From positions 19,742 through 83,741 of the forward strand of contig DAOUHG010000028.1 in NCBI GenBank assembly GCA_034428835.1: a stretch of DNA of 64,000 nucleotides, read 5' to 3'. Positions within the stretch are counted from its first letter, which is position 1. Each line of letters begins with the position of its first letter. Made by a program: the position numbers and the translations under genes. Below are positions 8,024 to 63,832 of the stretch, piece by piece. This DNA comes from Dehalococcoidia bacterium (GTDB taxonomy: Bacteria; Chloroflexota; Dehalococcoidia; Lucifugimonadales; UBA1123). The notes under the pieces were generated by a model that was given only the letters and a program-made list of their open reading frames with translations, was not told where the DNA came from and searched no databases.

Positions 8024-9775
8024 CTACTGCCACGCCCGCCATCTGTTCGCAATCGGCATCCGGCGGTCCCTTCCGAAGTTTCGCGGTGTTATCTTGATTC
8101 CCGGCGCCGCTTGACGTCGCTTGTACTCGGACCTGTCCACTAGCCTGATCACGTGCTTGACTACCTCGGCGTCTTCGCCGGTCGCGACTATTTCCTCAAA
8201 GCTCATGTCGTCTTCAACGTACGCTTTGAGAATTGGGTCCAGGCGCTCATAAGGTGGCAGACTGTCCTCGTCGAACTGGTCCGGCCGCAGCTCCGCGCTG
8301 GGCGGCTTCTTGATCACTGAAACAGGAATAACGGGACTGTCCGACAGGCTGTTTCGATACTCCGAAAGCTCATAGCACATGACCTTTGGCACGTCTTTGA
8401 TAACTGCGAATCCGCCCGACATGTCTCCGTATATCGTCGCGTAGCCGGTCGCCATCTCGCTCTTGTTGCCGGTGGTGAGCACCAGCCATCCGAACTTGTT
8501 CGAAAGTGCCATTATCAGATTGCCCCTGATTCTGGACTGGATATTCTCTTCCGAGATGCCCCAGTCAGTGCCCTCGAACTGCGGCGCGAGTGTATCCAGC
8601 ATTGCCTCGAACGACTGCTCGATAGGCAGCGTCCACAGCTCTATCCCTAGATTGTCTGCCAGAAGTTTGGCATCGACTACGCTGCCCTCGGAGGAGAACC
8701 GGGACGGCATCGACACACCCACGACGTTCTCGCTGCCAAGTGCGTCCACCGCTATCGCAGCGACGAGGCTTGAGTCGATTCCGCCGGAAAGGGCCACAAG
8801 CACCTTCTCGAATCCGCACTTCCTGACGTAGTCGCGAGTCCCCAGCGTTAGTGCGCGGTAAACCTCCGCGGGGCCGTCGTAGAGATGCCCCGGCGGCGAC
8901 TTCGCCAGGCCTGTGAGGCTGCTTGCGCTGTCCCAATCTGATACAGCGACCACCTCCCCTCTCCCTAGCTGCCTGATCGATGCCGGGTCCTCCTTGCGAG
9001 GGCGTGGGTCCCGCAGCCGCGATCTGAACACCGCCTCAACGTCCAGATCGACGACCAGCAGGTCCTCCTCGAACTGGCTCGACGACGCTATCATCTCTCC
9101 AGTTGGATCGAACACCATGCTCCCGCCGTCAAATACGAGCTCATCCTGACCGCCGACCATGTTGACGTATGCCAGAAATACCTCGTTGTCAGCCGCCCGA
9201 GTGGCCAGCATCTTCTCTCGCGACCGCCACTTGCCCGCATGGAAAGGCGACCCGTTGATGTTGACTATTACCTCTGCTCCAACTGACCGTTGAACGACTG
9301 AGGGTCCGACCGCGTACCAGATGTCTTCGCAGATGTTGACTCCCACGGAAGTTCCGTCCAGAACGTACACTGGACAGAAGTCCCCGGATCTGAAGTAGCG
9401 GTCCTCGTCGAATACACCGTAATTGGGGAGGAACTGCTTGTGGTATGTGCCCACGAGTCGTCCGTCGTAGGCGACCGCGGCAGCGTTGTACACTTCTCCG
9501 CCTACAAAGTCAGCGAAGCCAACGATGACGGCAATGCCTTCCGACGCCTGTGTGATCCGGTCCATATACTGGCGATTCTCGGCCAGAAACTGCGGTTTAA
9601 GCAGCAGGTCCTCGGGCGGATAGCCGGGGACAGTGAGCTCGGGGAATGCTACGAGGTTAGCCCCTGATTCTTTGGCCTGATCTACGACCTCGAGAATCTT
9701 CGATGTGTTTCCAGGGAGGTCGCCAACCGTGACGTTTATCTGCGCCAGCGCGATTCTGAACTTTCGCATGGGCAT
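8024..9775 (-). CDS. nadE: glutamine-dependent NAD+ synthetase
   Basis: N-terminal CN-hydrolase domain (FRIALAQINVTVGD..FPEL) plus NAD synthetase domain (VLVALSGGIDSS). The start is uncertain: ATG 9775, ATG 9769 or TTG 9823. Confidence 0.9.
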   Translation of the reverse strand: MPMRKFRIALAQINVTVGDLPGNTSKILEVVDQAKESGANLVAFPELTVPGYPPEDLLLKPQFLAENRQYMDRITQASEGIAVIVGFADFVGGEVYNAAAVAYDGRLVGTYHKQFLPNYGVFDEDRYFRSGDFCPVYVLDGTSVGVNICEDIWYAVGPSVVQRSVGAEVIVNINGSPFHAGKWRSREKMLATRAADNEVFLAYVNMVGGQDELVFDGGSMVFDPTGEMIASSSQFEEDLLVVDLDVEAVFRSRLRDPRPRKEDPASIRQLGRGEVVAVSDWDSASSLTGLAKSPPGHLYDGPAEVYRALTLGTRDYVRKCGFEKVLVALSGGIDSSLVAAIAVDALGSENVVGVSMPSRFSSEGSVVDAKLLADNLGIELWTLPIEQSFEAMLDTLAPQFEGTDWGISEENIQSRIRGNLIMALSNKFGWLVLTTGNKSEMATGYATIYGDMSGGFAVIKDVPKVMCYELSEYRNSLSDSPVIPVSVIKKPPSAELRPDQFDEDSLPPYERLDPILKAYVEDDMSFEEIVATGEDAEVVKHVIRLVDRSEYKRRQAAPGIKITPRNFGRDRRMPIANRWRAWQ

Positions 9776-15428: not shown

Positions 15429-16193
15429 ATGAACGCCATTGTCATCCAACATCACAGGTACGAGACTCTGGGTTCCAACTTTGAGTCTATGCTGACTGAT
15501 GCCAGTTTCTGCATCGTGACCGTACCAGTCTTCTCAGCCGCTCCGACCTTCGAGTCGTTTGACGCGCCAAGTCCCGGGCGGAGTGACATCGTCATCTCTC
15601 TTGGAGGACCCATGTCCGCAAACGACGCACTGCCTGCTCTTGAGCATGAGATGGAATATCTCCGACAGGCTGCGGGCAAGGGAGTGCGGGTCATCGGAGT
15701 ATGCCTGGGCGCGCAACTGCTCGCCCGGTCGCTTGGAGGGGAAGTTGAGCCCACTGGTGGCTACCAGTTCGGCCTCAGAAAGATCTGGGTCTCTGAACAG
15801 GGTCACAACGACTCCGCATTTGGCGCGATAGCAACTCCACTCGTGCCCATGTTGCACGGCGAGTGCTTCTCGACGCCGCCCAGCGCTACTCGGCTGGCGG
15901 AAGGATTCATGCTCTGTCGGGACGGTCGCTATCGTCGCTTCGACATGGCGTTCAGGTTCAGGAACGCTTACGGGGTACAGTTCGAGCCACAGTTGACACT
16001 CGATGAGCTGAGGGTGTGGAATCGGGAGCTGGCATCCGACTACCACTTGATGGGCGACAATTTCGACCCCGCTGAGGAAGCTGCCCGCAACCTCCGCGAG
16101 TTCGAACGCTTCTATCCGATTCACCGAGCACAAATGGCAGCCTTTCTGAGCGCCGTCTTGTCTTCGAGTTCCCCGCATGATGCTCCTGTCTGA
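15429..16193 (+). CDS. type 1 glutamine amidotransferase-like protein
   Basis: 254 aa, VIGVCLGAQLLARSLGG nucleophile-elbow motif and YGVQFEPQ. Confidence 0.7.
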   Translation: MNAIVIQHHRYETLGSNFESMLTDASFCIVTVPVFSAAPTFESFDAPSPGRSDIVISLGGPMSANDALPALEHEMEYLRQAAGKGVRVIGVCLGAQLLARSLGGEVEPTGGYQFGLRKIWVSEQGHNDSAFGAIATPLVPMLHGECFSTPPSATRLAEGFMLCRDGRYRRFDMAFRFRNAYGVQFEPQLTLDELRVWNRELASDYHLMGDNFDPAEEAARNLREFERFYPIHRAQMAAFLSAVLSSSSPHDAPV

Positions 16194-16285
16194 ACCAGCC
16201 TCAAATTGGGACACTGCTACTCGACTCCAGACTTAGCTGTTAGGATGTCGATGACCACACTGCTTCCTGTCGAGGTACGCCAGAA

Positions 16286-19200
16286 ATGACGCAAACACCG
16301 GCACATCAGTCCCCATTCTTCAGCTCTGCGCTGCCAGATACTGTCTCAGATATGACTCTGCCCGGCCTTGAGGGAGAGATCGTTATCACGCGAGACAGCT
16401 ACGGTATTCCGCACGTCAAAGCCGAGTCGGAGCACGATGCCTACTTCGGTCAGGGCTTCGCAACGGCACAGGACCGACTGTGGCATATGGACTACGACCG
16501 CGCCCGCGCCTACGGCAGATGGGCTGAGTTCATTGGGCCCGATGGCGTAGAACATGACCTCATGATGCGCAGATTCCAAATCCGCGCTTCCGTCGAGGAG
16601 GACTGGTCGGCTCTGTCGGAGGACGCTCGTGCGATGTTCGAGGCGTACGCGAACGGTGTCAACGCATTCATCGAGTCAGCAGACACTCTACCCGTGGAGT
16701 ACACACTGATCGGTGCTGAGCCTGAAACCTGGAGGCCCCGGGACTGTCTCGCGGTATTCAAGGTCAGACACATCATGATGGGCGTGTTCGAGGGCAAGAC
16801 ATGGCGTGCCAAGCTGGTCAATACCTTCGGCCCTGAGCGAGCCACCAGCCTTCTGAAAGGGTACGGCAACGAGTGGCGAGATCGTGTCAAGAGCATATGG
16901 GGCGACGAGAGAGCTGCGAGCTTTTCCAGTCAGCTCGTTATCGTGCCACCGGGCACGGAGTCCGAGTCCGATCTGATCGACGGCATCGAGCAGTTGGAGA
17001 ACGGACTCGCCGCGGTAGAGTGGCTGAAAGACGACGACAGCGGTTCGAACAACTGGGCCGTTCACGGCTCTCGGACCGCCTCCGGCAAGCCTCTCGTCGC
17101 TGGGGACCCTCACCGCGGCTTGGACGCCCCAAACGTCTACTATCAGAACCACGTCGCCTGTCCCGACTTCGACGTAATCGGCCTGTCCTTCCCCGGATGT
17201 CCGGGGTTCCCTCACTTCGGTCACAACGAGCAAGTGGCCTGGTGCGTCACCCACGCCGGTGCAGACTATCAGGACCTCTATGTAGAGAATCTCCGCTACA
17301 GTGAACAGGGCCCTGAGTACGAGTTTCTAGGCGAGTGGCACCCGGCAATCGTTAGCGACGAGACCATCACGGTCAGGGGCGAAGACCCTGTAGCGCTTGA
17401 TGTCGTGTCAACCGGCCATGGCCCCATAATCGCTGGCAGTGAAGACGGATCTATGGGTCTGGCTTTCAGATATACCGCAACGACGGGACCGAATCTCGGA
17501 TTCGAATGCTTGAGGCGTATGTTGCATTCGCAGAACGTGGACGAGATTGACGAGTCCATGCGCGACTGGGTTGACCCGTGCAACAACTTCGTTTTCGCTG
17601 ACGTTCATGGAGACATCGGATATCTCAACCGTGGTCAGGTTCCCGTGCGTTCGATGGCCAACGCTTGGCTTCCCGTTCCCGGTTGGACGGGCGACCACGA
17701 GTGGGAAGGCATGATTCCATTCGAAGATCTTGCCCGTATTCGAAACCCCGAGGATGGGCTGATTGTCACCGCTAACAACCGCATCGTAGGTGAAGACTAT
17801 CCGTACTACATCTCACTCAGCTACGCTCCCGATCACCGTGCGAGGCGTATTCTCGACAGGCTTAGCGGACTGCAAAACGCCACCGTGGAGGACATGGCCG
17901 CCATACACTCGGAGATAGTATCCATCCCCGCGCAGGTGTACTCGAAGTTCCTTGCGAACCTGTCGCCTGAAGGCATGTCCCAGATCGAGGAAGCAAGCAT
18001 CGAGCATCTCAAGCTCTGGGATGGCAGTATGGACAGAGACCTGGTCGCCCCAACGATCTACAGCGCGATCCGATCGGAGATCCACGGTCGGTACTTCTCC
18101 AGGCTGTTCGGCAGACTGTCCGAAGACGCTCTGGGCGCGCAGGGACGGGGAGCTCCCGGTCATCTCAGACAGCTTGCGTCTCTCCTGGTAGCCGACCTGC
18201 AGAGCGGGGTAGAGGTCGTGCGACCCCCTGACCCGGACTGGGAATGGGACTTCGATAGCGAGCTGTACCAGGGCTTCTATGAAGCTGTTCACAGGCTCTC
18301 AAGGTCTGGTGCAGGACTCGGCAGAGACGTGGATTCGTGGAAGTGGGGTGATGTCCACCGCACCAGGCCAAGGCATCCGCTCTCGGCGGCCTTCCCGGAC
18401 GCCGCCGATCTTCTTGACCCGCCTGGCTTCGGTATGAGTGGAGACGGAGACACCCCGCAGGCCGGAAGCTACGGAATCGTTGCCCCAGACTCTTCGAGTA
18501 CAATCTGGGACTCGTTCACCATAACCGGCACGTCGGTTGCTCGTTACGTCTGGGACACGTCAGATTGGGACAACTCTCGCTGGATAGTCCCGCTTGGCTC
18601 GTCGGGGCACGCCGGAAGCCCGCACTACGCGGACCAGGGGCCGATCTGGGCCGACGTTGAGTTGATTCCGGCCACTTACTCTTGGGAGCGCATCCAGGAA
18701 GATGCCGAGTCAGTACAGACAATCAGGCCTGTCCCAGAACCGGCTATCATTGAGACAAGCCCCACAGTGTCCGACGTTTCCGGCCAGTCGCCCGACGACA
18801 GCCTGTATCACGGGTCGGCGATCTCACACAATGTCGTAGTGCAGCGAGACGTTATGGTCGAGATGCGCGACGGCGCCCGTCTGGCAACCGACTTGTACCT
18901 CCCTGCCATTGACGGCGTTCCTGCCCCCAGTCCCTTCCCCGTGATACTCGAGCGCACTCCCTACGACAAGCTTGCCTCCAGGCAGACATCGAAAGGCAAG
19001 TTCTTCGCGCGACGCGGGTACGTGGTTGCGATTCAGGATGTCCGTGGCAGGTTTAACTCAGAGGGTGATTGGCTGCCCTTCTTCGATGAAGCCGAGGACG
19101 GCTACGACACGGTGGAGTGGCTGGGTACTCAATCCTGGAGCGACGGTAAAGTGGGCACCATGGGCGATTCGTACGCCGGCTCCGACCAGGCTGCCTTGGC

Positions 19201-20620
19201 GACACTGAATCCGCCGCATCTATCGACAATGATCGTCGCTGTTGGCGCGTCAGACTACTTCTCAAGTTCCATGCGTCACAACGGCGCCCTGGAACAGCGC
19301 TTTCTCATCTACGCCTACAGGATGGCCACCACCAGCCCGGAGGCCAAAGCCGACCCCGCGTTAGGCGCCGCGCTCCTCAACATCTTCGAGAACGGGATGC
19401 CTGAAGTCGTCGAGAACTTCCCGATTCTCAAGGACACGTCGATACTCCGGAGGGTCCCGACTGTAGAGCAGTGGATCGTCGACTTGCAGACTGTCGGCGA
19501 GCGCACAGACTACTGGAAACAGCGAGGCTACGCTCCCTGCGAGTACTACGACGAACACGCCGACGTCCCAACTCTCTATCTAGGCGGATGGTACGATTCA
19601 TATGCCCGCAACTCCACCGAGTGCTACATGAAGTTGAGCAGGCTTAAGGATTCGCCACAGAAACTTCTCATGGGACCGTGGACCCACGGCCAATATGAGG
19701 TGACATACTCAGGAGATATCGACTTTGGCCTGACCGCCCACATCGACTACAACGACGTCAAGCTGGCCTGGTTCGACCATTATCTCAAGGGGATGCGCAC
19801 AGAGGTCGCCGACTGGAGTCCAGTCCGATACTTCACGATGGGTGGCGGCGACGGCCGCATTAACGACGAGCACAGGCTGAACCACAGCGGCTTCTGGACA
19901 AGCGCAGATGACTGGCCCGTACCGGGAACCCGGTTCGTGCCATATTACGTTCACGGCGACGGCACCCTGTCCCGCAAACAACCGGGGAGCGATGAGCGGC
20001 CCTTCACGTCCTACGTCTTCGATCCTTCTGACCCTGTTCCCACGATCGGAGGGGGCATCTCGGCAGCAAACCCCATCATGGAACCGGGCGCATACGACCA
20101 GCGCGGCGATCCTACTCGTTTCTACGGCACTGGGGACCACCAGCCGCTGAACACTCGTCCGGACGTACTCACGTACCAGACGCCGCCGCTGGAGGTTGAC
20201 GTAGAGGTCACAGGCCCCATCACCGTAAGGCTGTGGGCATCATCGTCAGCGGTCGACACCGACTTCACGGCCAAGCTCATTGACGTATACCCGGACGCGC
20301 CCGAGTATCCGGAGGGGTTGGCTATCAACATCACCGACTCCATCATTCGTGCGCGCTACCGGAACGGCTACGATGAGCCCGAATTCATGGAGCCCGGAGA
20401 GATATACGAGTTCGAGTTCGAGTTGTATCCCACGTCGAACACTTTCGCGGCGGGGCATCGCATCCGCGTGGACATCAGCTCAAGCAACTGGCCCAGGTTC
20501 GACGTGAATCACAACACGGGCGAGCCGCTAGGCGTCGATCGGACCTACGAAACGGCTCATCAGACAATTCACCACAGCCCGGGCCTGGCATCTCATATAG
20601 TGCTGCCCGTTTCCAGATAG
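16286..20620 (+). CDS. fusion protein: penicillin-acylase family (S45 Ntn hydrolase) + CocE/NonD family (S15) hydrolase
   Basis: 1,444-aa uninterrupted ORF. N-terminal module has SYGIPHV and DDSGSNNWAVHGSRTASGKPLVAGDPH (Ser254, codon 17045-17047). C-terminal module has MRDGARLATDLYLP, ILERTPYDK, GDSYAG (Ser962, codon 19169-19171) and RIRVDISSSNWPRFD. Confidence 0.85.
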   Translation: MTQTPAHQSPFFSSALPDTVSDMTLPGLEGEIVITRDSYGIPHVKAESEHDAYFGQGFATAQDRLWHMDYDRARAYGRWAEFIGPDGVEHDLMMRRFQIRASVEEDWSALSEDARAMFEAYANGVNAFIESADTLPVEYTLIGAEPETWRPRDCLAVFKVRHIMMGVFEGKTWRAKLVNTFGPERATSLLKGYGNEWRDRVKSIWGDERAASFSSQLVIVPPGTESESDLIDGIEQLENGLAAVEWLKDDDSGSNNWAVHGSRTASGKPLVAGDPHRGLDAPNVYYQNHVACPDFDVIGLSFPGCPGFPHFGHNEQVAWCVTHAGADYQDLYVENLRYSEQGPEYEFLGEWHPAIVSDETITVRGEDPVALDVVSTGHGPIIAGSEDGSMGLAFRYTATTGPNLGFECLRRMLHSQNVDEIDESMRDWVDPCNNFVFADVHGDIGYLNRGQVPVRSMANAWLPVPGWTGDHEWEGMIPFEDLARIRNPEDGLIVTANNRIVGEDYPYYISLSYAPDHRARRILDRLSGLQNATVEDMAAIHSEIVSIPAQVYSKFLANLSPEGMSQIEEASIEHLKLWDGSMDRDLVAPTIYSAIRSEIHGRYFSRLFGRLSEDALGAQGRGAPGHLRQLASLLVADLQSGVEVVRPPDPDWEWDFDSELYQGFYEAVHRLSRSGAGLGRDVDSWKWGDVHRTRPRHPLSAAFPDAADLLDPPGFGMSGDGDTPQAGSYGIVAPDSSSTIWDSFTITGTSVARYVWDTSDWDNSRWIVPLGSSGHAGSPHYADQGPIWADVELIPATYSWERIQEDAESVQTIRPVPEPAIIETSPTVSDVSGQSPDDSLYHGSAISHNVVVQRDVMVEMRDGARLATDLYLPAIDGVPAPSPFPVILERTPYDKLASRQTSKGKFFARRGYVVAIQDVRGRFNSEGDWLPFFDEAEDGYDTVEWLGTQSWSDGKVGTMGDSYAGSDQAALATLNPPHLSTMIVAVGASDYFSSSMRHNGALEQRFLIYAYRMATTSPEAKADPALGAALLNIFENGMPEVVENFPILKDTSILRRVPTVEQWIVDLQTVGERTDYWKQRGYAPCEYYDEHADVPTLYLGGWYDSYARNSTECYMKLSRLKDSPQKLLMGPWTHGQYEVTYSGDIDFGLTAHIDYNDVKLAWFDHYLKGMRTEVADWSPVRYFTMGGGDGRINDEHRLNHSGFWTSADDWPVPGTRFVPYYVHGDGTLSRKQPGSDERPFTSYVFDPSDPVPTIGGGISAANPIMEPGAYDQRGDPTRFYGTGDHQPLNTRPDVLTYQTPPLEVDVEVTGPITVRLWASSSAVDTDFTAKLIDVYPDAPEYPEGLAINITDSIIRARYRNGYDEPEFMEPGEIYEFEFELYPTSNTFAAGHRIRVDISSSNWPRFDVNHNTGEPLGVDRTYETAHQTIHHSPGLASHIVLPVSR

Positions 20621-20624
20621 GCTA

Positions 20625-22187
20625 TCAATGCCGAATCGCCTGACCGGGCAGAGCACCCGTGTGCGAGCCTCCATCGATAACCACCGTCCCGTTGACGATG
20701 ACGTACTCGATGCCTACAGGGAACTGCTTCGGGTCCGTTCGAGTGGCTGGAGCCCGGACGGAGCTTGCGTCGAACACCGTAATGTCGGCGTTCATGCCGT
20801 CGCGTAGAACACCTCTGTCCTGGAGGCCCAGCCGCTGGGCCGGGAAAGAGGTCATCTTCCTGATGGCGTTCGGCAATGACATCTGCCGCTCCTCTCGCAC
20901 GTACTCAGCCAGGATGACTGGGAAACAGCCGTAGGTACGCGGACTCGGGAAGTCGCCGAGCAGCACCGCGTCGCTGCCCACCATGGAGAGCGGGTGAGTG
21001 ACGAATGCGGGCAGTGTCTTCTGATTCAGCCCCTCGGCCACGTAGCACGTCTGAAGGTCCTCTTCGATCAGGAGATCACACAGCGTGTCAACTGGGTTCT
21101 GTCTTCGCATTTCGGCTATCTCGGCGACAGATCTTCCCTCGTACTGGTGATTCTCAGGACGCTTGAAGTAAGTCAGCCACATGTCATGCCAGGTGGGTGC
21201 GCGTGGCACGACTTCGCCCCGCAGACGCTCGCGAGCATCCTCGTCTGCCAGTGCCTGTTTGAGGCGCTCTGGCCCTCCTTCATGTACCCAGTCTGGAAAT
21301 ACGATCAGGATTCGCGTGCTGCCGAGGCTGTACGGATAACTGTCGAAAGTAACGTCTTGTCCCGAAGCCGACGCATCTTCAACCAGACCCAGTAGCTGCG
21401 GCGCTCCACCCGGAGACGGCGCCTTCTGGTAGAAATGCGTGATGTGCACGGGCACGCCGCTCCGCTCGCCGATCTCTATCGCCTCCTTGAAGGGGTCCAT
21501 GAACATGTCGCCCGACTTGTAGCGAACGTGGGTGTGGTAGATGCCGCCAAGGTCGGCGACCTGCTTCGATAGCTCTACAAGCTCATCTGTGGAGGCGTAC
21601 CCACCCGGTGGGTAGTCGAGTCCGGTCGACATACCCATCGCGCCCTCTTCCATCGCCTCGCGAATAATCGCCTTCATGTTTGAAATGTCGTTCGCCGTAG
21701 CTGGTGTCGACTCCCAGCCAATAGCGTCGATACGCACTGGCGAGTTGCCTAGGATGTACGCGATGTTGACCGCCGACTTCCGGTCGAACATGTTGAGATA
21801 CTGCTCGACTGTCGACCACGATCCTGGCAGTGGAGGGTTGCCGTCCAGTCCTGAGTTCAGTTCGACAAACCGCCGGAAGTCTTTCTGAGACCTGAACGGC
21901 GCGTACGAGTTGCCATCGACGCCTATCAACTCTGTCGTAATTCCCTGCTTGACCTTCGGCTCGTGCTCAGGCTCTGACAGCAGCACCAGGCCCGAGTGCG
22001 CGTGCATGTCTATGAATCCTGGACAGATCGTCAGGCCGGTAGCGTCTATCGTCCGGGATGCCTCAACATCCTGGATGGACCCTCGAAACATCTGGATGGA
22101 AGCCCCGTCTACCCCGACCGAACCGTAGTAGCCGGGATTCCCCGTTCCGTCGATGATCAGTCCGTTGCGAATCAGGATGTCTAGCAT
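20625..22187 (-). CDS. N-acyl-D-amino-acid deacylase (D-aminoacylase) family amidohydrolase
   Basis: 520 aa, MLDILIRNGLIIDGTGNPGY...ICPGFIDMHAHS metal-binding motif. Its stop lies 4 bp from the stop of the fusion gene (convergent). Confidence 0.8.
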   Translation of the reverse strand: MLDILIRNGLIIDGTGNPGYYGSVGVDGASIQMFRGSIQDVEASRTIDATGLTICPGFIDMHAHSGLVLLSEPEHEPKVKQGITTELIGVDGNSYAPFRSQKDFRRFVELNSGLDGNPPLPGSWSTVEQYLNMFDRKSAVNIAYILGNSPVRIDAIGWESTPATANDISNMKAIIREAMEEGAMGMSTGLDYPPGGYASTDELVELSKQVADLGGIYHTHVRYKSGDMFMDPFKEAIEIGERSGVPVHITHFYQKAPSPGGAPQLLGLVEDASASGQDVTFDSYPYSLGSTRILIVFPDWVHEGGPERLKQALADEDARERLRGEVVPRAPTWHDMWLTYFKRPENHQYEGRSVAEIAEMRRQNPVDTLCDLLIEEDLQTCYVAEGLNQKTLPAFVTHPLSMVGSDAVLLGDFPSPRTYGCFPVILAEYVREERQMSLPNAIRKMTSFPAQRLGLQDRGVLRDGMNADITVFDASSVRAPATRTDPKQFPVGIEYVIVNGTVVIDGGSHTGALPGQAIRH

Positions 22188-22351: not shown

Positions 22352-23447
22352 ATGTTAGACTTGAAAGGCCATGTAGCTGAGTTGATAGCACGAATATCCG
22401 ATCTAATGGTGCGGCTTTGACCTCGACAGCAAGCGGATAGAGATAGGAGAACTTGAGAAGCGGGCCTCCGATCCCTCTTTCTGGGAGGATAACCAGCGAG
22501 CGCAGATCGTAATGCGCAGGATGGCCGGACTCAAGGACGAAGTCGAGACATTGACCGGTCTAATGTCCAGGGCGCAAGCCCTCGATGAATTGATAGAGTT
22601 GGCGCTCCTGGAGGAAGAGGACTCGTTGGCCGAGACGATGGGCGACGAGCTTGTCGAGTTGTCGACAACACTCGATAATCTCGAGTTCCTGCTCATGCTT
22701 TCTGGAGAGTACGACGACCACGACGCCATCCTCGCGCTGCACGCAGGCGCAGGCGGGGTCGACTCGCAAGACTGGGCGCAAATGCTTATGAGGATGTACC
22801 TCAGATGGTCTGAGCGCAGGGGATTCAAGACCGAGATACTGGACGTTTCAATGGGGGATGAGGCAGGCATCAAGAGCGCAGTGATCCAGGTAAACGGCCT
22901 GAATGCATATGGTTTTCTCAAAGCAGAGAAGGGCGTACACAGACTCGTGCGTATATCTCCATACGACGGGAATCACGCGCGACATACCTCGTTCGCGCTC
23001 GCCGAGGTTATGCCTGACGTCGAAGACGATTCCGAAGTGACCATCAGCTCGGACGACCTCAGAATCGACACTTTCAGGGCTGGCGGCCACGGCGGTCAGA
23101 ATGTCCAGAAGAACTCTACAGCCGTAAGGATCACGCACCTCCCATCGGGTATCAGGGTAACCTGTCAGAACGAACGCTCCCAGCACCAGAACAAGGAAAT
23201 TGCGATGAGGATTCTCATGGCCCGGCTCGTCGAGCTGGAAATGAAGAGGCGCGCTGAGGCGATGGCGCGGATAAAGGGGGAGCACATCTCTCCTGAGTGG
23301 GGCAACCAGATTAGAAGCTACGTCCTTCACCCCTATCAGATGGTAAAGGACCACAGGACCGATCACTCCGTTTCCGATGCGGCTGCGGTTCTTGATGGCG
23401 ATCTGGACGACTTCATCACTTCGTATCTTAAGTCAACCGTTGGATAG
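22352..23447 (+). CDS. prfB: peptide chain release factor 2 (requires programmed +1 frameshift)
   Basis: Frame 0 gives MLDLKGHVAELIARISDLMVRL then TGA (22418-22420). The +1 frame from 22419 continues DLDSKRIEIGELEKRASDPSFWEDNQRAQ... into the 311-aa track ORF (SPYD, GGHGGQNVQK). Total is about 364 aa. Confidence 0.9.
22415..22421 (+). other. RF2 autoregulatory +1 frameshift site CTT TGA C
   Basis: The exact canonical heptamer CTTTGAC is read in the sequence, 22 codons after the ATG. Confidence 0.85.
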
Positions 23448-23484
23448 CTCGTCATTGGACCAGCCAAGCAATTGTAGGAACCCG

Positions 23485-25191
23485 ATGAGAACACTTGCGA
23501 TACTACTGACAGCCCTAACCCTGGCCTTGGCGCTCGCCTGTGGGGGAGGTGAGGCGGAGACGCCCACGCCCGAACCCGTAACTCAGTCTGAGCAGCCCAC
23601 TCCCGCACCAACCGAGGAGCCGACCACCGACGCAGCGCCGACTGCGGCCGCGGCTGCCGCTGACGAAGAGACTTCCAGTGAGGAGCTCTCAGGCGGAGTC
23701 TTCAGACGTCTCTGGGCAGACCCCCCGACTCTCGATCCACACCTGACGTCTGACACCACGTCGGCAGGTCTCGTCGTCGAGATCTTCAGCGGTCTGGTCG
23801 CGCTGAACACCGACCTTCAACTGGTCCCCGACATAGCGGAGAGCTGGGAGATCAATGAAGACGGTACGGTTTACACTTTCCGCATTCGCGACGAGGCGAA
23901 GTTCCACGATGGCAAGCGGGTGACAGCCGACGACTTCAAGTGGTCAATGCAGCGAGCCGCCCACCCTGATACCGCTTCCCCTGTCGCTGACACGTACCTG
24001 AACGACATAGTCGGCGTGGAGGCGGTTCTCGAAGGGGAAACCGAAGACATCAGCGGAATCACCGTCATCGACGACTCCACACTACAGATCAAGATCGACG
24101 CCCCAAAGGCGTACTTCCTTGCAAAGCTCACGTATCCGACCGCCTATGTGCTTGATAGTGAGAACGTGGTGTCCGGCGGCAGGACCTGGACCGATACACC
24201 CAACGGCACCGGCCCTTTCAGGCTCAAAGAATACCGGATCGGCGAGCGGATAATTCTCGAACGGAACGAGCACTACTATCGCGAGCGCGCCAACGTAGAT
24301 TCCATCGCTATGAACCTGGCTGGCGGCCAGTCGATGGCAATGTACGAGAACGACGAGATCGACATAACAGGAGTCGGCTTGTTCGATCTTGACCGCGTCC
24401 TCGACCCCTCCGAGCCACTGCATGCAGAGCTCGTCGTAGCCCCCCCGGACTTCAGCATCTCGTACGTGGGATTCAATGTGAGTATGCCACCATTCGACGA
24501 TCCCAAGTTCAGGCAGGCGCTCAATCACGCTGTTGACAAGCAGCTGATCGCCAGCGAGGTGCTGTCCGGCCTCGTTGAACCAGCCTACGGCATTCTCCCC
24601 CCCGGATTCCCCGGGTTCAACCTGGACCTGACGGGTCTTGAGTACGACCCAGACCTCGCTCGGCAACTTCTGGAGGAGTCTGAGTACGCCGATCCCGCGA
24701 CAAGACCTCGAATCGTGGTTACCGTACCCGGAACTGGCGGCACTATTGGACTCGATCTCGAAGTGGTGATCGAGATGTGGAAGCAGGAGCTCGGCGTCGA
24801 GGTCGAAATCCAGCAGGTTGAGTGGGCTACCTACCTTCAGGACCTGAACCAGCACAGGTTCCAGGCTTATGCCGGCCTGGGTTGGGAGGCTGACTACCCA
24901 GACCCCCAAGACTTCCTGGACATCCTATTCCACACAGAAAGCTCGCTCAATCACGGCATGTACTCTAATTCCGAAGCTGACGCTATCCTCGAAGAGGCTC
25001 GGACCGAGACCGATGTCGAGCGGAGAGTAGAGCTCTACCAGCAGGCTGAAGAACTGATCGTTCAGGATGGCGCGTGGCTTCCACTGTGGTACTCTGGTGA
25101 ACGGTACGTACTCATAAAGGACTACGTAAAAGACTACCACGTTACCCCTATGATCGTGCCGAAGTTGAAGAACATCCGCCTGACCGACTAA
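23485..25191 (+). CDS. ABC transporter substrate-binding lipoprotein, family 5 (peptide/nickel, Opp/Dpp-like)
   Basis: Start set at ATG 23485 with AGGAA upstream. Signal plus Cys in MRTLAILLTALTLALALAC, followed by a long P/T/E/A linker. Family-5 body ...YTFRIRDEAKFHDG... Confidence 0.85.
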   Translation: MRTLAILLTALTLALALACGGGEAETPTPEPVTQSEQPTPAPTEEPTTDAAPTAAAAAADEETSSEELSGGVFRRLWADPPTLDPHLTSDTTSAGLVVEIFSGLVALNTDLQLVPDIAESWEINEDGTVYTFRIRDEAKFHDGKRVTADDFKWSMQRAAHPDTASPVADTYLNDIVGVEAVLEGETEDISGITVIDDSTLQIKIDAPKAYFLAKLTYPTAYVLDSENVVSGGRTWTDTPNGTGPFRLKEYRIGERIILERNEHYYRERANVDSIAMNLAGGQSMAMYENDEIDITGVGLFDLDRVLDPSEPLHAELVVAPPDFSISYVGFNVSMPPFDDPKFRQALNHAVDKQLIASEVLSGLVEPAYGILPPGFPGFNLDLTGLEYDPDLARQLLEESEYADPATRPRIVVTVPGTGGTIGLDLEVVIEMWKQELGVEVEIQQVEWATYLQDLNQHRFQAYAGLGWEADYPDPQDFLDILFHTESSLNHGMYSNSEADAILEEARTETDVERRVELYQQAEELIVQDGAWLPLWYSGERYVLIKDYVKDYHVTPMIVPKLKNIRLTD

Positions 25192-25224
25192 CAACCGTCC
25201 ACTGCGCAGACAGAAGCGAGGATC

Positions 25225-25246
25225 GGGGCGCTCTCACGGGCGCCCC
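25225..25246 (+). promoter_or_regulatory. intra-operon stem-loop between binding-protein and permease genes
   Basis: ggggcgc (25225-25231) pairs with gcgcccc (25240-25246) around an 8-nt loop. Hairpins after SBP genes commonly stabilise or attenuate the transcript. Confidence 0.35.
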
Positions 25247-25254
25247 AAGATGAA

Positions 25255-26190
25255 ATGGGGCTGTACATCACCAGAAGGCTGCTATGGCTGCCAGTGTTGC
25301 TGTTCGCGGCGTCGCTCGTCACGTTCTCACTCGGCAGGTTCGGGCCCGGTGATCCCGTTCAGGTCATCCTCGGCAATAGGTACGACCCAGACTCGGCCGT
25401 AACCAAGAGCCTTAGAAAAGAGCTCGGACTCGACCGTCCCTTCGCGGTCCAGTACGGCAGCTACATGTGGGGTGTCTTGCAAGGCGACTTCGGCGAGAGC
25501 TATCGCTTCAGGGGGCGGCCCGTCAGGGACTTGCTGACTGCCAAGATGTGGGTGTCGTTTCAGGTCAACCTTGCCGCGCTCATCGTCAGCCTCTCTGTTG
25601 GACTGCCGCTCGGCTTCTTTATAGCCCACAAACAGGGTGGCTGGATTGATCCTAGCTCAGTTGCAACTGCGCTTGTCCTAATGTCTATTCCCATCATGGT
25701 CAGCATCCCTGCCTTCCTTTGGGTGACCTGTCTCAAGACGGACCTGTTGCCCTGTTCGGGATGGGGGGGGTTCTGGGACCCCAGGATTATCACGCCTGCT
25801 GTCACAATGGGCATTCCCGGTGTTGCAGGACTGTTAAGGCTCATGCGCGCCAGCACCCTCGATGTAATGGGCCAGGACTTCATCAGGACTGCTTACGCCA
25901 AGGGCCTCACTTCCTTCGCGGTCGACTACCGCCACATACTGAAGAACGCCATGATCCCGATCATCACTGTGTTGTCCTTCACGCTTGCCGGTATGTTGAG
26001 CACAGGGTTCATTACCGAGCGCCTACTGGGTATCCCCGGAGTTGGAAGTCTCGCCATAGATTCCATCTTCAACCGGGACTACCCCGTCATCATGGCAATC
26101 ACCATCATCGGGTCCACCGCCTTCGTGCTTGCTAACCTCCTGGCCGACATCTCTTACTCGTTCGTCGATCCGAGGATCAGGTACAGTTGA
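25255..26190 (+). CDS. ABC transporter permease (DppB/OppB-like)
   Basis: 311 aa, multiple TM segments, FIRTAYAKGL EAA-loop motif. Confidence 0.9.
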   Translation: MGLYITRRLLWLPVLLFAASLVTFSLGRFGPGDPVQVILGNRYDPDSAVTKSLRKELGLDRPFAVQYGSYMWGVLQGDFGESYRFRGRPVRDLLTAKMWVSFQVNLAALIVSLSVGLPLGFFIAHKQGGWIDPSSVATALVLMSIPIMVSIPAFLWVTCLKTDLLPCSGWGGFWDPRIITPAVTMGIPGVAGLLRLMRASTLDVMGQDFIRTAYAKGLTSFAVDYRHILKNAMIPIITVLSFTLAGMLSTGFITERLLGIPGVGSLAIDSIFNRDYPVIMAITIIGSTAFVLANLLADISYSFVDPRIRYS

Positions 26191-27170
26191 ACCAGCAACC
26201 TGTCCGGACCGTAATCGCGGATTTCGACTCCGCCACGGATGATCGGGGTGGCAAAGGCCATCTGAGGCGCGCTTGGTCGAGGCTGGTCAGGAAAAAGCTC
26301 GCCATGACAAGCGTGGTGGTGCTGGTCATTCTGTATTCTGTCGGCATATTCGCCCCGCTCGTCGCGCCCTACGAGTATACAGATCAGGACTATACTGCAA
26401 TAAGAAAGCCCCCCAGCGCTGAGCACTGGGCGGGCACCGACCTCAAGGGCCGTGATCTGCTGACTCGCGTATTGTGGGGAATCCAGAACACGGTAATCAT
26501 CACGGTCATATCCATGGCGACCGGCGGCCTCTTGATTGGTGTAACCCTTGGCCTGCTGTCTGGCTACTTCGGTCGGTGGGTCGACTCGCTCATCATGCGC
26601 GTCGGGGAGGTGTTCGCATCCTTCCCGGACATACTGCTCGTCATAATCTTGGCGGCCACGCTAGGCCCCAGGCTTCGTGATTTTGTCAGGAACCTCGAAG
26701 ACACAACCTTTCTTGATGGCTTGATAAAGGCCGGTGTCGTTGACTATCTGGTCATCTCCATCGCGCTTGTGTCGTTCAGCTGGTTTGGCATGGCAAGGAT
26801 AGTCCGCGGACAGGTCCTCGCCCTCAAGCAGACGCAGTTCGTAGACGCCGCGCGCTCTGTAGGTGCAAGCACGCCAAGAATCCTGTTCGCACACCTGCTT
26901 CCCAACGCAATCAGTCCGATCGTCGTACTGGTTTCGATGGGTATGGGCTCCATGGTAGGGACCGAGATAATTCTGAGCTGGCTCGGCCTCGGAATCCAGC
27001 CTCCTAGGCCCAGCCTCGGAGTCATGCTCCTCGAGGCCGGCAGCCTCAGCGCCCTCAGAGAGGTGCCCTGGATGCTGCTCATTCCCGGACTCGTGGCGTG
27101 GACTCTCGTGCTGGCCTGGAACCTGCTCGGCGACGCGCTGAACGACGTGCTCAACCCGCGAACCCGCTAA
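26187..27170 (+). CDS. ABC transporter permease (DppC/OppC-like)
   Basis: 327 aa, FVDAARSVGAS EAA-loop motif. TTG start overlaps the upstream stop (TTGA). Confidence 0.9.
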   Translation: MNQQPVRTVIADFDSATDDRGGKGHLRRAWSRLVRKKLAMTSVVVLVILYSVGIFAPLVAPYEYTDQDYTAIRKPPSAEHWAGTDLKGRDLLTRVLWGIQNTVIITVISMATGGLLIGVTLGLLSGYFGRWVDSLIMRVGEVFASFPDILLVIILAATLGPRLRDFVRNLEDTTFLDGLIKAGVVDYLVISIALVSFSWFGMARIVRGQVLALKQTQFVDAARSVGASTPRILFAHLLPNAISPIVVLVSMGMGSMVGTEIILSWLGLGIQPPRPSLGVMLLEAGSLSALREVPWMLLIPGLVAWTLVLAWNLLGDALNDVLNPRTR

Positions 27171-29537: not shown

Positions 29538-30410
29538 ATGAGAAGGCACTTCCCCGTAAAGGGCGTAGTAATAGCCCTGCTTTCTTCAGTTCTTGTATTG
29601 GCGTTGATAGCATGTCAGGGATCGCAAGGAGAATCTGGGCAGCCTGGATTGCCAGGAAGCCCGGGTAACGCGGGCGCTTCCGGTCCTCAAGGTGCTCAGG
29701 GAGACCCGGGCTTTGCCGGTCTGCCAGGGCATTCTGGTAACCCGGGACCAGCGGGACCTCCGGGCGTTCCAGGTCCTGCAGGCGCGAATGGCGCTCCGGC
29801 GGTCTCACCTGAGGCTGCAATAGAACTCAGCAAGTCTACTATATCAACCATGGGCGACGCCGTTACCGTACGAGGCTCCGGGTTCCTACCCGGTGAGCCC
29901 GTTGTACTCCAACTAGTGGTCGACCAGAATCTATCGATTATCGCTGGCGGCGCCAGGGGTGCCCAGGTGCAGGCCAACGAGGCCGGCGCGTTCAGCATCA
30001 CCTTTGATGAGATTGGTGGCGCCTCTGCGGGCCAGGCTGGCGCCGTTGGAGAGCGGACGTTCTTTGCCCTGGGCGCAGACGGCAGCAGGGCCAGCGCACC
30101 AGTCAAGGTCGTCGGCGTACCTGAGGCCACGACTGCGGTCGACACCAGCTTGTTGGCCAGCGCGACCCCATCTGGCGAACAGATCAAGATCTGGGGCGCG
30201 GGATTTGCTCCCAATGAAGTCGTATCCCTGATCGCGGTCGGAGCGGCCGAAGGTGGAGGCAACCGCATATTCGGTGGCGTGACTGCCAACGAGTCCGGCG
30301 CCTTCGCGGTTGATGCTGCTAACCCGCTCGCAGATGGCGTGTACACGCTCAGAGCGGCTGGCAACATGGGATCCACTGCCACGGCTCCACTGGTCATCGC
30401 AGATAAGTAG
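29538..30410 (+). CDS. collagen-like repeat lipoprotein with two Ig-like/beta-sandwich-like domains
   Basis: 290 aa. Signal peptide with lipobox LIAC (Cys26), then 20 uninterrupted G-X-Y triplets. Two related domains follow (VTVRGSGFLPGEPVVLQLV...; IKIWGAGFAPNEVVSLIAV...). Confidence 0.8.
   Translation: MRRHFPVKGVVIALLSSVLVLALIACQGSQGESGQPGLPGSPGNAGASGPQGAQGDPGFAGLPGHSGNPGPAGPPGVPGPAGANGAPAVSPEAAIELSKSTISTMGDAVTVRGSGFLPGEPVVLQLVVDQNLSIIAGGARGAQVQANEAGAFSITFDEIGGASAGQAGAVGERTFFALGADGSRASAPVKVVGVPEATTAVDTSLLASATPSGEQIKIWGAGFAPNEVVSLIAVGAAEGGGNRIFGGVTANESGAFAVDAANPLADGVYTLRAAGNMGSTATAPLVIADK
29619..29798 (+). repeat. collagen triple-helix-type (GXY)x20 coding repeat
   Basis: GSQ GES GQP GLP GSP GNA GAS GPQ GAQ GDP GFA GLP GHS GNP GPA GPP GVP GPA GAN GAP, read directly. 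Confidence 0.9.
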
Positions 30411-36275: not shown

Positions 36276-38012
36276 CTAGTAACCCCGGGCTTCGTCGGTC
36301 CCGGTGGGTTGCACACCGGCGTGGAGGATGCCGGTGACGGGATCGGTCATGACGCCGCGGGGCCTTGAGAAGCCTCCGCCGGTGAAGGGCTCCGGGACGA
36401 CCTCCACGTTGTGGCCCATACGGGCCAACGCCTCGACGGTCTGCGGGTCGATCCGGTGGTCGACGAAGGTCTCGCGCTCGGCGGCGTCAACGCTGGGCGC
36501 CGTGATCGCCTCCTGGATGCTCATCCCGAAGTCGATCACGTTGGAGATGACGTGGGCGATACGGCACATGATCCTGCGGCCGCCGGGCGCTCCGACGGCG
36601 AGGAACGGCTTGCCGTCCCTGAGCAGCAGCACGGGCGCCATGTTGTTCATCCCCCGCTTGTATCCGGCAATCGAGTTCGCCGCGCCGGGCATTGGGTTGA
36701 AGACGACCATGCCGTTGGTGAGGAGCACTCCGGTGCCGGGCACGACGACTCCTGAGCCGAAGCCTCCCACCGCGGTCTGCGTGCAGGCGACCATGTTCCT
36801 GTCGCGGTCTATGACGCTGAGGTGGGTGGTGCAGTCGCCCTCGCTGGGGGGCGACGCGTGGGCGGCGCGCTCCGGCCGCGGCTGAGGGTCGTAGCGCCAG
36901 GGGTCGTGCAGGGGACTGTCGGCGTAGGCGACCCACGGCTGTAGCTCGCGCTCTTCCTCCAGCTTGGCGGCCTCGCGGTGGATGGAGAGGGCGATCTCCC
37001 GGGCGTACTCGGGGGAGAGGATTCCGTCGAGCGGCGCGGGCTCGAAGTCGGGGTCTCCGACGAAGCTGTAGCGGTCGGCGAAGGCGTGCCTTGCCGCCTC
37101 CGTGTACAGGTGCAGATGCTCTGGGGAGGCGTGCGTCAGGCGATGCAAATCGAAGCTCTCCAGGATCGTGAGGGTCTGCAGACTCGTGATCGTGCCGGCC
37201 GGCACGGGGGAGCCGAGCAGCTCGTACCCCCTGTAGGAGGCGCTTACAGGTTCGAGCACCTGCGCCTCGTAGTCGGCGAGGTCATTCGCGCTGAGGACGC
37301 CGCCGTTTTGTCTCATCTCCTCGTCGATGGCGGCCGCGATCTCGCCCCGGTAGAGGGCGTCCTTGCCTTCTCTGCCGATCCGTTCGAGGGTGTCGGCAAG
37401 GTCCCGCTGGACGATCTTCGCACCAGGCGGCGGAGGGTATCCATCCGTCAGGAAGATGCGCGCGGCCTCGCCATAGCGGACCAGGTTGGGCATGTATCTG
37501 GCGATCATCAGGCAGGCGGTGGAGTCGGCCTCGAACCCCTCTCTGGCGTAGTGGACGGCCGGCTCCAGCAGTTGCTCTAGCGGGAGGACGCCGAACAGCT
37601 CGTGGGCGCGACACATGCCTGCCGTGATCCCCGGCACGCCTACCGAGCGGTGTCCGACGGCGTTGGCGCGTTCCTCAACCTCGTATATGCCGTTACCTTC
37701 GACCGTCTGGCCAACGACGCGGAACATATCGGCCGTTGCGGCCTTTGGGGCTCGGTGGCCGTAGTCGACGGCTATGGTGCGACGCTCCGCTGTCATGTGG
37801 ACGATCATCTGACCGTGGCCGGCGATGGAGGAGTTCCACGGCTCGATCACATTGAGGCAGAAGCCGGTAGCGACGGCGGCGTCCACGGCGTTTCCGCCGC
37901 TCTTGAGGACGTCGACGCCGACTTGGGCAGCGATCGGGTGCGCAGTGGCGACAGCGCCGTGCTCGACGACGACCTCGTCCTTGTCAGGACGCCAGACGCT
38001 GCGTGTGTTCAA
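36276..38012 (-). CDS. gamma-glutamyltransferase family protein (no evident signal peptide)
   Basis: 578 aa, GGNAVDAAVA, autoprocessing Thr context GDCTTHLSVIDRDRNMV, GAPGGRRI. TTG start overlaps the upstream stop (TTGA). Confidence 0.85.
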   Translation of the reverse strand: MNTRSVWRPDKDEVVVEHGAVATAHPIAAQVGVDVLKSGGNAVDAAVATGFCLNVIEPWNSSIAGHGQMIVHMTAERRTIAVDYGHRAPKAATADMFRVVGQTVEGNGIYEVEERANAVGHRSVGVPGITAGMCRAHELFGVLPLEQLLEPAVHYAREGFEADSTACLMIARYMPNLVRYGEAARIFLTDGYPPPPGAKIVQRDLADTLERIGREGKDALYRGEIAAAIDEEMRQNGGVLSANDLADYEAQVLEPVSASYRGYELLGSPVPAGTITSLQTLTILESFDLHRLTHASPEHLHLYTEAARHAFADRYSFVGDPDFEPAPLDGILSPEYAREIALSIHREAAKLEEERELQPWVAYADSPLHDPWRYDPQPRPERAAHASPPSEGDCTTHLSVIDRDRNMVACTQTAVGGFGSGVVVPGTGVLLTNGMVVFNPMPGAANSIAGYKRGMNNMAPVLLLRDGKPFLAVGAPGGRRIMCRIAHVISNVIDFGMSIQEAITAPSVDAAERETFVDHRIDPQTVEALARMGHNVEVVPEPFTGGGFSRPRGVMTDPVTGILHAGVQPTGTDEARGY

Positions 38013-39556: not shown

Positions 39557-39701
39557 GGTAAGCGCCTCCCGTCTATGTTGCGGCAATGTTAGCAGACTAA
39601 GGCGCACGACGAGCGGGTATTACGGCACCCCGCACGTACCTAATAGAGATGTGGAAATCCGGGGCCCACTTTGCCGAGGAATGTTCATTCTGGCAAATCC
39701 C

Positions 39702-42324: not shown

Positions 42325-42400
42325 TGGTACCCCTGCCCGGACTCGAACCGGGGCACCCGGTTTAGGAAACCGGTGCTCTATCCTCCTGAGCTACAGGGGC
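42325..42400 (-). tRNA. tRNA-Arg (anticodon CCT), CCA encoded
   Basis: Hand fold: GCCCCTG TA GCTC AGGAGGATA GAGC A CCGGT TT-CCT-AA ACCGG GTGC CCCGG TTCGAGT CCGGG CAGGGGT A CCA. Confidence 0.85.
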
Positions 42401-42630
42401 ACGTGGACTGTGAGCGTTCAGGGCCGTGAGTACGACCACACGAAAATTCTGACAGGGGCCGGCGCTCCGTGTCAACACACGAGCTTGGTTCGAGCCTGTC
42501 CCATATTAGTAGGCGCCACCAGTCCAGACCTTGTCCTAAGGCCGCAAGGGTTGCCCTGCGCCTACTAAATTGACGCAGGGCCTGACCTTGAGGAGTAGCG
42601 ACGGTCCGCGAACCTCCTCATAGGGCCGCC

Positions 42631-42873
42631 TTCCGGGGACTTCGAGGACCTTCGAGACCTTTTTCGGTCGTCTGAAAAAAGAGTTAGCCACCAATGGCGG
42701 CGCTCAGAGGGCGACTTCCGGGGACTTCGAGGACTTTCGAGACCTTTTTCGGTCGCCTGAAAAAAGAGTTAGCCACCAACGGCGGCGCTCAGGGGTCGGC
42801 TTCCGGGGACTTCGGGGACCTTCGAGACCTTTTTCGGCCTGCGAAAAATAATTCAGCCGCGAATCGCGTTCAG
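42631..42873 (+). repeat. 85-bp tandem repeat array, left (forward) arm, about 3 copies
   Basis: The unit ttccggggacttcgaggaccttcgagacctttttcggtcg(t/c)ctgaaaaaagagttagccaccaa(t/c)ggcggcgctcag... starts at 42631, 42716 and 42801. Copies 1 and 2 differ at 6 of 85 positions by my alignment. Copy 3 is diverged, and a partial copy precedes 42631. Confidence 0.9.
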
Positions 42874-63691: not shown

Positions 63692-63832
63692 GGCAACCTC
63701 ATATCTGTATTGTCTTGGAACTAGTGAGCTTGCTGGACGATAGCATTGCGATAGGAGCAGGTCAATTCCGAGACCTGCCATCACGGTGTGCTACAATCCG
63801 ATCGCTCGTGAACACTCATTGCGGAGGACACC

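Follow-up and report, generated by a model that had tools for sequence, protein, structure and literature searches.

Penicillin and cephalosporin acylases on one side, and alpha-amino-acid ester hydrolases (AEHs) and cocaine esterase on the other, belong to two industrially major enzyme families, S45 and S15. AEHs, like penicillin G acylase, are industrially used beta-lactam acyl-transferases. Among the closest described relatives of the gene analyzed here are stand-alone enzymes of both families, namely, the Pseudomonas N176-derived class III cephalosporin/glutaryl-7-ACA acylase (4HSR/4HST), an alpha/beta heterodimer, and the cocaine esterase CocE of Rhodococcus (1JU3). At 16286..20620 (+ strand) of a 64,000-nucleotide stretch from a Dehalococcoidia bacterium (contig DAOUHG010000028.1, positions 19,742 to 83,741; here called the window), a single gene was found to encode a complete S45 N-terminal nucleophile (Ntn) acylase precursor together with a complete CocE/NonD (S15) serine hydrolase. 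A natural, conserved and apparently cytoplasmic fusion of these two families has not previously been described.

The open reading frame (ORF) starts with ATG, contains no internal stop and comprises 1,444 codons plus the stop codon, with an even GC content of 0.58 to 0.62, and the exact protein is deposited in NCBI, ENA and Logan. A Shine-Dalgarno-like GAGG read in the sequence (16272..16275, +) lies approximately 10 nt before the ATG. As an in-frame stop is present 14 codons 5' of the ATG and the frame is open only from 16244, a longer N-terminus is impossible; the length of the frame, together with two full-length, high-scoring domain matches, likewise rules out a chance ORF. The preliminary description of this DNA, made from its letters alone, had proposed one uninterrupted S45 plus S15 polypeptide. 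This was confirmed, with the same ORF recovered in 10 independent loci, and the motifs and codon positions that it quoted (SYGIPHV, DDSG-SNNWAV, ILERTPYDK, GDSYAG, Ser254 and Ser962) were all correct. The profile scan that it suggested for the domain borders placed Penicil_amidase, Peptidase_S15 and PepX_C all above their curated cut-offs. An Rfam scan of the window returned two tRNAs only, with no match near the fusion gene.

In the N-terminal half, Pfam Penicil_amidase (PF01804) matches residues 33 to 804 (E = 2.9e-197; 658 bits against a cut-off of 21.3) and is covered from profile position 3 to 674 of 675; the motifs SYGIPHV (residues 38 to 44), DDSG-SNNWAV with Ser254, and AGDPH (272 to 276) are present. 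The alpha-subunit region, residues 1 to ~196 (16286..16873, +), matches the 4hsr_A alpha chain over residues 11 to 198 and has a mean family identity of 0.73. It is followed in the family alignment by a less conserved inter-subunit spacer (mean identity, 0.58) at residues ~197 to 253 (16874..17044, +), which ends in an invariant Gly253. A 16-residue insert in this spacer (NEWRDRVKSIWGDERA...; ~16874-16921, residues ~197 to 212) is confined to the window protein and its two closest cluster relatives, P0002 and P0003. The beta-subunit region, residues 254 to ~812 (17045..18721, +), aligns to beta1-532 of 4hsr_B (E = 8e-110; Foldseek TM 0.87). Ser254 (17045..17047, +), the predicted Ntn nucleophile, corresponds in alignments to beta-Ser1 of 4hsr_B and numerous other penicillin G acylase and cephalosporin acylase beta chains, and would form the Gly253/Ser254 autoproteolysis site. 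Across an alignment of 16 fusions, Gly253-Ser254, His276 (17111-17113, +; equivalent to beta23) and Asn497/498 (Asn497, 17774-17776, +; equivalent to beta244) are invariant, as are His310 and His323, which correspond to pocket positions beta57 and beta70. The 4hsr and 4hst sequences differ from each other over the displayed beta1-532 at beta57 and beta70 only. The precursor would be expected to cleave itself at Gly253/Ser254 and to lose the spacer, yielding an alpha chain of ~21 kDa and a beta chain still covalently joined to the CocE-type hydrolase (~131 kDa). That the beta chain would remain attached to a second hydrolase had been anticipated earlier, and this prediction is supported.

The CocE/NonD module occupies residues 843 to 1444 (18812..20617, +), as delimited by profile matches, by alignment to CocE and by a Foldseek TM of 0.76. 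Within it, an S15 alpha/beta-hydrolase with a helical insert spans residues 862 to 1136 (18869-19693, +; Pfam PF02129 Peptidase_S15, E = 1.3e-57, 196 bits, cut-off 23), and a jelly roll spans residues 1175 to 1438 (19808-20599, +; PF08530 PepX_C, E = 5.9e-47, 161 bits, cut-off 22.5), while NCBIfam TIGR00976 (CocE_NonD) covers residues 858 to 1442 (E = 2e-126, 423 bits, cut-off 66.3). The motifs MRDGARLATDLYLP (860 to 873), ILERTPYDK (887 to 895), GDSYAG with Ser962 and RIRVDISSSNWPRFD (1392 to 1406) were identified. Four invariant residues align to the active site of CocE: Tyr893, the oxyanion-hole equivalent (18962..18964, +; CocE Tyr44); Ser962, the triad nucleophile in G-D/G-S-Y-A-G (19169..19171, +; Ser117); Asp1104, the triad acid in GWYD (19595..19597, +; Asp259); and His1134, the triad base in GPWTH (19685..19687, +; His287). 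The module therefore possesses the Ser-Asp-His triad, with the serine in G-x-S-Y-x-G, as well as the oxyanion tyrosine. Against the profiles of the Xaa-Pro dipeptidyl-peptidase PepX (NCBIfam NF003780/81/82) it scored 18 to 45 bits, far below cut-offs of 642 to 881, with the C-terminal domain alone matching. Asp1104 is followed by Ser-Tyr-Ala, without an acidic pair; residues 2 and 3 after the catalytic Asp, the probable counterparts of the acidic Glu/Asp of the AEH carboxylate cluster, which binds the alpha-amino group of the substrate, are Tyr and Ala in the fusion. This would make an AEH-type recognition of that group less likely.

No hydrophobic N-terminal stretch was found in any of the 16 fusion-family N-termini examined (16/16), and no membrane-like segment was found in the fusion protein. 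As both a signal peptide and a membrane segment are absent, we infer that the protein is soluble and probably cytoplasmic. A signal peptide is typical of, though not strictly defining for, characterized S45 precursors, and the class III acylase-family precursor normally carries one (PMC11241749), unlike the fusion protein. However, the stand-alone relatives inspected (~795 to 830 aa) begin at the same position as the fusion; thus, the absence of a signal peptide, correctly noted in the preliminary description, is not peculiar to the fused form.

In a search over 5.8 billion proteins, approximately 18 clusters of full-length fusions (1,391 to 1,491 aa) were found, sharing 64 to 99% identity and all containing the three Pfam domains. 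Genomes were also surveyed with a single representative for each GTDB species; when 86 loci were then analyzed by tblastn and their ORFs classified, an uninterrupted fusion ORF was identified in 10 loci of different assemblies (63 to 97% identity), including complete chromosomes of metagenome-assembled genomes (MAGs). Sixteen fusions, 65 to 88% identical to the window protein, made up the family alignment. According to the record titles, the fused loci come from Dehalococcoidia, SAR202-cluster or Chloroflexota MAGs, and the public records of cluster-mates (e.g., MCE2456494.1 and MDP6798216.1) carry the name "CocE/NonD family hydrolase" only. A junction-spanning query (residues 560 to 1160) was also searched with phmmer against 1.84 billion representatives; among the top 150 matches, the S45-S15 architecture was present in a single representative, P0009, from the same SAR202 clade. 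The only other long top-listed protein with two matched stretches, P0241, was rejected as a CocE-CocE tandem; this protein of 1,088 aa is unrelated, has an N-terminus resembling a signal peptide and contains two complete CocE/NonD units (2 x S15 + PepX_C). Three further long matches, P0352, P0379 and P0389, have differing N-terminal extensions. In a Foldseek search of the PDB no single chain covered both modules, and nothing relevant was found in the literature on an S45-S15 architecture or on SAR202 acylases. The architecture is uncharacterized, yet already publicly deposited and under-annotated, and, among the matches examined, is confined to one SAR202 sub-clade. The earlier statement that no characterized protein has this architecture held, also for solved structures. 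It is not unique to the window, as it has been deposited many times.

These data also bear on whether the window genome in fact contains two separate genes, joined by an assembly chimera or by a missed stop or frameshift, as the preliminary description had cautioned. Indel errors do occur in some related long-read contigs, and a genuine two-gene form is known in two loci (L002 and L014, described below). However, the ORF is uninterrupted in the 10 independent loci noted above, complete chromosomes among them, the identical 1,444-aa protein is present on several contigs in NCBI, ENA and Logan, and the linker codons are in frame throughout the aligned members. The concern over the junction is thereby removed, and an artifact is given next to no probability. 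One such contig is that of locus L001. P0020, the closest seemingly stand-alone acylase (86% identical), was considered as a possible unfused form and rejected, because L001 bears compensating frameshifts and other broken genes. In this long-read contig, which is syntenic with the window (L001 8001-12362), the fusion frame is lost between residues ~785 and ~935, and the genes for Amidohydro_3 and a substrate-binding protein (SBP) are also split. The breaks are probably indel errors that created spurious "stand-alone" acylase and CocE database entries.

Genuinely unfused orthologs were identified in more distant SAR202 genomes, with acylases 50 to 57% and CocE proteins 60 to 66% identical to the corresponding modules and encoded in the same order and on the same strand. 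In 11 species-level genomes the two are adjoining separate genes, spaced by -96 to +111 nt in 10 of these genomes and by 419 nt in L026, and in four further genomes they lie 1.3 to 2.9 kb apart. The unfused CocE gene starts just 5' of a conserved Y-[ED]-G-S, with a Shine-Dalgarno sequence and ATG in L029, L013 and L015 and with GTG in L065. Neighbor-joining trees (100 bootstraps) were constructed from the concatenated protein and from each half separately. A single clade unites the 11 fused genes with L002 and L014, the split pair, at a support of 100% in the concatenated tree, 100% in the CocE-half tree and 96% in the acylase-half tree, and a nine-member sub-clade enclosing the split pair is supported at 100%, 100% and 98%, respectively. 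The trees of both halves thus agree on these two groups. L002/L014 are placed beside the window gene, L012 and L011 in the concatenated and acylase trees (100%), while their position within the sub-clade is not settled by the CocE-half tree (support of ≤45%). In the split pair, a 4-nt ATGA stop/start overlap (L002 9995-9998; L014 ~8430-8433) replaces the linker, such that the acylase ends in ...SPRGIT* and CocE starts with MTASGRPYEGS. The two assemblies differ at nearby nucleotides; as the same overlap is nevertheless present in both, the fission is real and secondary. The sequence comparisons thus show a single origin of the fusion, within one sub-clade of SAR202 (Dehalococcoidia), out of an older, conserved same-strand acylase-CocE pair, and one later fission that produced two genes with an overlapping, translationally coupled stop and start. 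The unfused pairs represent the ancestral state, and the 15 unfused loci with monophyletic fused forms correspond to a Rosetta-stone fusion.

Between the modules lies a linker predicted to be disordered, residues ~813 to 842 (~18722..18811, +), recognized by its variability, predicted structure and ratio of nonsynonymous to synonymous substitutions (dN/dS); the P/S/E-rich linker previously placed near 18720-18800 was accordingly located at ~18719-18811. In the window protein it is rich in Pro, Ser, Glu and Thr, and in the family it is rich in Pro, Ser, Thr, Glu, Asp, Ala and Gly. Its span between the conserved Gln811 and Gly843 varies from 15 to 99 residues, and its mean identity in the family alignment is 14%, compared to 67 to 79% for the modules. 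The shortest linkers (15 to 17 aa) match the read-through length expected of a short intergenic spacer (10 to 15 nt). An AlphaFold2 model of residues 254 to 1444, based on a 72-sequence alignment and leaving out the alpha chain (mean pLDDT, 73.6), contains two folded modules joined by residues 809 to 843 at a pLDDT of 35 to 38 and without secondary structure, and its pTM of 0.51 means that the relative orientation of the modules is not confidently predicted. Using the Nei-Gojobori method on the window gene versus L011, dN/dS was 0.045 for the alpha region, 0.041 for beta, 0.032 for S15 and 0.047 for PepX_C, in contrast to 0.47 for the linker (modules, ~0.04); the range over all four module regions was 0.03 to 0.16. 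Both modules are therefore under strong purifying selection, and the catalytic residues of both are conserved. Because the linker is hypervariable and predicted to be disordered, the orientation is not resolved by the model and one sub-lineage has split the gene again, a loose, flexible and dispensable tether is favored over an integrated two-site machine.

The genes flanking the fusion in the window were also compared across loci. Upstream are an F420-type luciferase-like oxidoreductase gene, a CMD-family gene and a stand-alone class I glutamine amidotransferase (GATase)-like gene (15429..16193, +), for whose L002 ortholog a weak Peptidase_C26 signal was recorded; the GATase-like gene is upstream in 4 of 10 fused and both split loci. 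Immediately downstream and convergent is an Amidohydro_3 gene for a D-aminoacylase-like metallohydrolase (20625..22187, -), assigned by Pfam and by its best PDB matches, D-aminoacylase 1m7j (E = 7e-63) and N-acyl-D-glutamate deacylase 3gip, and present in 8 of 10 fused and both split loci. Beyond it, prfB (release factor 2; 22352-23447, +) is encoded in two frames, as ORF0 (22352-22420) reads MLDLKGHVAELIARISDLMVRL*, a canonical CTT TGA C signal for programmed +1 frameshifting spans 22415-22421, and the main frame runs on from 22419 to 23447; this frameshifting is a known mechanism, and the gene is kept beside the fusion in most related loci. The block that follows prfB (23482..27170, +) encodes an OppA/DppA-like SBP_bac_5 lipoprotein (~23482-25191) and two permeases (25255-26190 and 26187-27170). 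The ORF of the binding protein (23377-25191, +) overlaps the end of prfB, and its start is probably at 23482 (MRTLAILLTALTLALALAC...), giving a lipoprotein signal with a lipobox; this neighbor thus has a clear lipobox, in contrast to the signal-less fusion protein. In the majority of fused, split and separated loci the acylase/CocE pair comes with the prfB-SBP5-permease block, compared to only 3 of 57 loci that have an acylase paralog alone. In a Pfam census of 102 neighbor ORFs in the 15 unfused loci, the only recurrent partners were prfB, SBP_bac_5 and the permeases. Phosphotriesterase (PTE) genes (three loci), Amidohydro_2 genes (three loci) and an Amidase-signature gene (L013 1647-3191) were observed in the flanks of unfused pairs (L013-L065), too few to interpret.

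Several other features of the window were recorded. A second, stand-alone CocE/NonD gene (S15 + PepX_C; 61931-63784, -; 617 aa) shares just 35% identity with the module in the fusion and is thus a distinct paralog. A GC-rich stretch at 36276-41379 (-), at 0.62 to 0.66 compared to ~0.58 elsewhere, encodes a gamma-glutamyltranspeptidase (also an Ntn hydrolase), a flavin amine oxidase and a urease-alpha-like amidohydrolase, adding to the richness of the region in amide hydrolases; no further urease subunits were found among the large ORFs. An 85-bp tandem repeat (42617-42837; 2.6 copies, 91% match) lies approximately 220 nt from a tRNA gene (42328-42400, -). A collagen-triple-helix-repeat protein is encoded at 29538-30410 (+), 3' of a 5'-3' exonuclease gene, an arrangement also present in L003 (19492-20079), whose fusion is 64% identical.

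Taken as a whole, these observations make it fairly probable that the product is a soluble, probably cytoplasmic bifunctional hydrolase, derived from a fused gene pair and held together by a flexible tether, whose parts serve one catabolic route. The two enzymes would share their small-molecule substrates or work on consecutive ones, with the CocE-type module taking the same or the next intermediate after the acylase, and the tether would mainly enforce 1:1 expression and proximity, not a rigid channel. The nearest characterized relatives (class III glutaryl-7-ACA acylase, D-succinylase and CocE), the D-aminoacylase-like neighbor and the OppA-like importer hint at N-acyl or peptide-like substrates. 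These may be N-acylated amino-acid, peptide or ester compounds that the cell imports from marine dissolved organic matter and that could bear dicarboxylic acyl or D-amino-acid moieties. This identity of the substrates is the weakest step and is proposed with low confidence. It is a doubtful extension that the fusion is a dedicated two-step SAR202 device for hydrolysis-resistant amides and esters of deep-ocean dissolved organic matter, recycling refractory organic nitrogen by an unrecognized pathway; the acylase would strip a blocking acyl group from compounds such as peptide remnants that are N-(dicarboxy)acylated or contain D-amino acids, after which the CocE-type hydrolase on its tether would cut the unmasked product. 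A number of points weigh against the bifunctional catabolic enzyme. Its self-processing, activity and substrates are all inferred, the neighborhood is variable outside the prfB-SBP5-permease block, and one fused member (L005) lies in a wholly different gene context. In addition, prfB separates the fusion from the transporter genes, so that the synteny may be historical rather than functional. The fission shows that the covalent link is dispensable, so that being fused need not confer a selective advantage. Finally, with a moderate model lacking the alpha chain, the unpredicted interface is weak negative evidence.

The preliminary description had gone further in one respect, proposing an enzyme that deacylates stepwise at two active sites; the strong form of this idea would be a rigid two-active-site machine, a fixed complex channeling the first product to the second site. 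Such a machine would agree with the retention of the gene pair down to ~50% acylase identity, the congruent phylogenies of the halves and the translational coupling that the ATGA overlap preserved after fission. It is nonetheless unlikely, given a linker of 15 to 99 aa without sequence conservation, its predicted disorder with a pTM of 0.51 for the model, and the occurrence in nature both of a renewed split and of ancestral forms whose two genes lie as much as 2.9 kb from each other, which show that neither a covalent link nor tight co-translation is required. At the opposite extreme, loss of a stop codon between functionally unrelated neighbors could have been a neutral accident, tolerated as both enzymes work. 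The shortest linkers, equivalent to read-through of a 10- to 15-nt spacer, the single reversion of the fusion and a neighborhood that does not indicate a shared pathway would be in keeping with this. We regard it as similarly improbable, however, as outside the fused clade same-strand adjacency of acylase and CocE has persisted in at least 15 species-level genomes despite changing flanks, and the fusion has been retained under strong purifying selection across a clade diverged to 63% identity.

Two further explanations concern what the modules do, and both are far less likely. Either module could be a catalytically dead scaffold or binding domain (pseudo-enzyme), for which nothing specific was found; two members have Gly in place of Asp961 of GDSYAG, but this residue is not catalytic. 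The invariance of the catalytic and oxyanion residues of both modules in 16 sequences and an equally low dN/dS in both leave this very improbable. A dedicated quorum-quenching enzyme (acyl-homoserine lactone [AHL] acylase plus esterase/lactonase) or a beta-lactam-modifying one (cephalosporin/penicillin deacylase) could be proposed, since the S45 family includes AHL and beta-lactam acylases, a weak PvdQ profile match was obtained and phosphotriesterase-family genes lie near the pair in three unfused loci. The PvdQ equivalog (NCBIfam NF051460), however, scored only 64 bits against a cut-off of 950, no resistance or signaling genes were found near the fusion, and the fusion enzyme, apparently cytoplasmic, is found in free-living oligotrophic ocean bacteria. 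Characterized AHL and beta-lactam acylases, on the other hand, are exported (PMC11241749), which further counts against such a role; we consider it highly unlikely. The loosely tethered, bifunctional catabolic hydrolase thus remains the favored reading.

As a Rosetta-stone case, the fusion predicts joint action of the many acylase and CocE/NonD genes that lie side by side in SAR202 genomes, and it offers a handle on the use of amide-rich organic matter by these abundant, uncultured deep-ocean bacteria. The apart, adjacent, fused and re-split states together provide a clean natural case of gene fusion and fission. The present public label hides the 810-residue acylase half.

Compared to known systems, the acylase half most resembles the class III acylase 4HSR, to which both the alpha chain and, end to end, the beta chain align (38% identity). 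The Gly/Ser processing site, with Ser254 as beta-Ser1, His beta23, Asn beta244 and the pocket His beta57/beta70 are kept, whereas the fusion has a longer spacer and a 630-aa extension of beta, consisting of the linker and second hydrolase. D-succinylase of Cupriavidus sp. P4-10-C (7EBY/7EA4; S45) is also a full-length match over alpha and beta (E = 1e-81), recovered by Foldseek as well, with approximately 27% identity and no second hydrolase module; its substrates are N-succinyl-D-amino acids, in keeping with the D-aminoacylase-like neighbor of the fusion. CocE aligns with residues 848 to 1442 (E = 1e-86, ~33% identity) and consists of the same three parts, alpha/beta-hydrolase, helical insert and jelly roll, but nothing at the fusion suggests cocaine-like substrates. 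AEHs (1MPX and 2B4K) share the S15 fold and PepX_C (E = 1e-41 to 1e-47) and, at 24 to 25% identity, are farther than CocE. The unfused SAR202 pairs (e.g., L029, L013, L044 and L006) are in many cases followed downstream by the prfB-SBP5-permease block that also accompanies the fusion. They differ from it in that acylase and CocE are encoded separately, with an individual start and ribosome-binding site for either gene.

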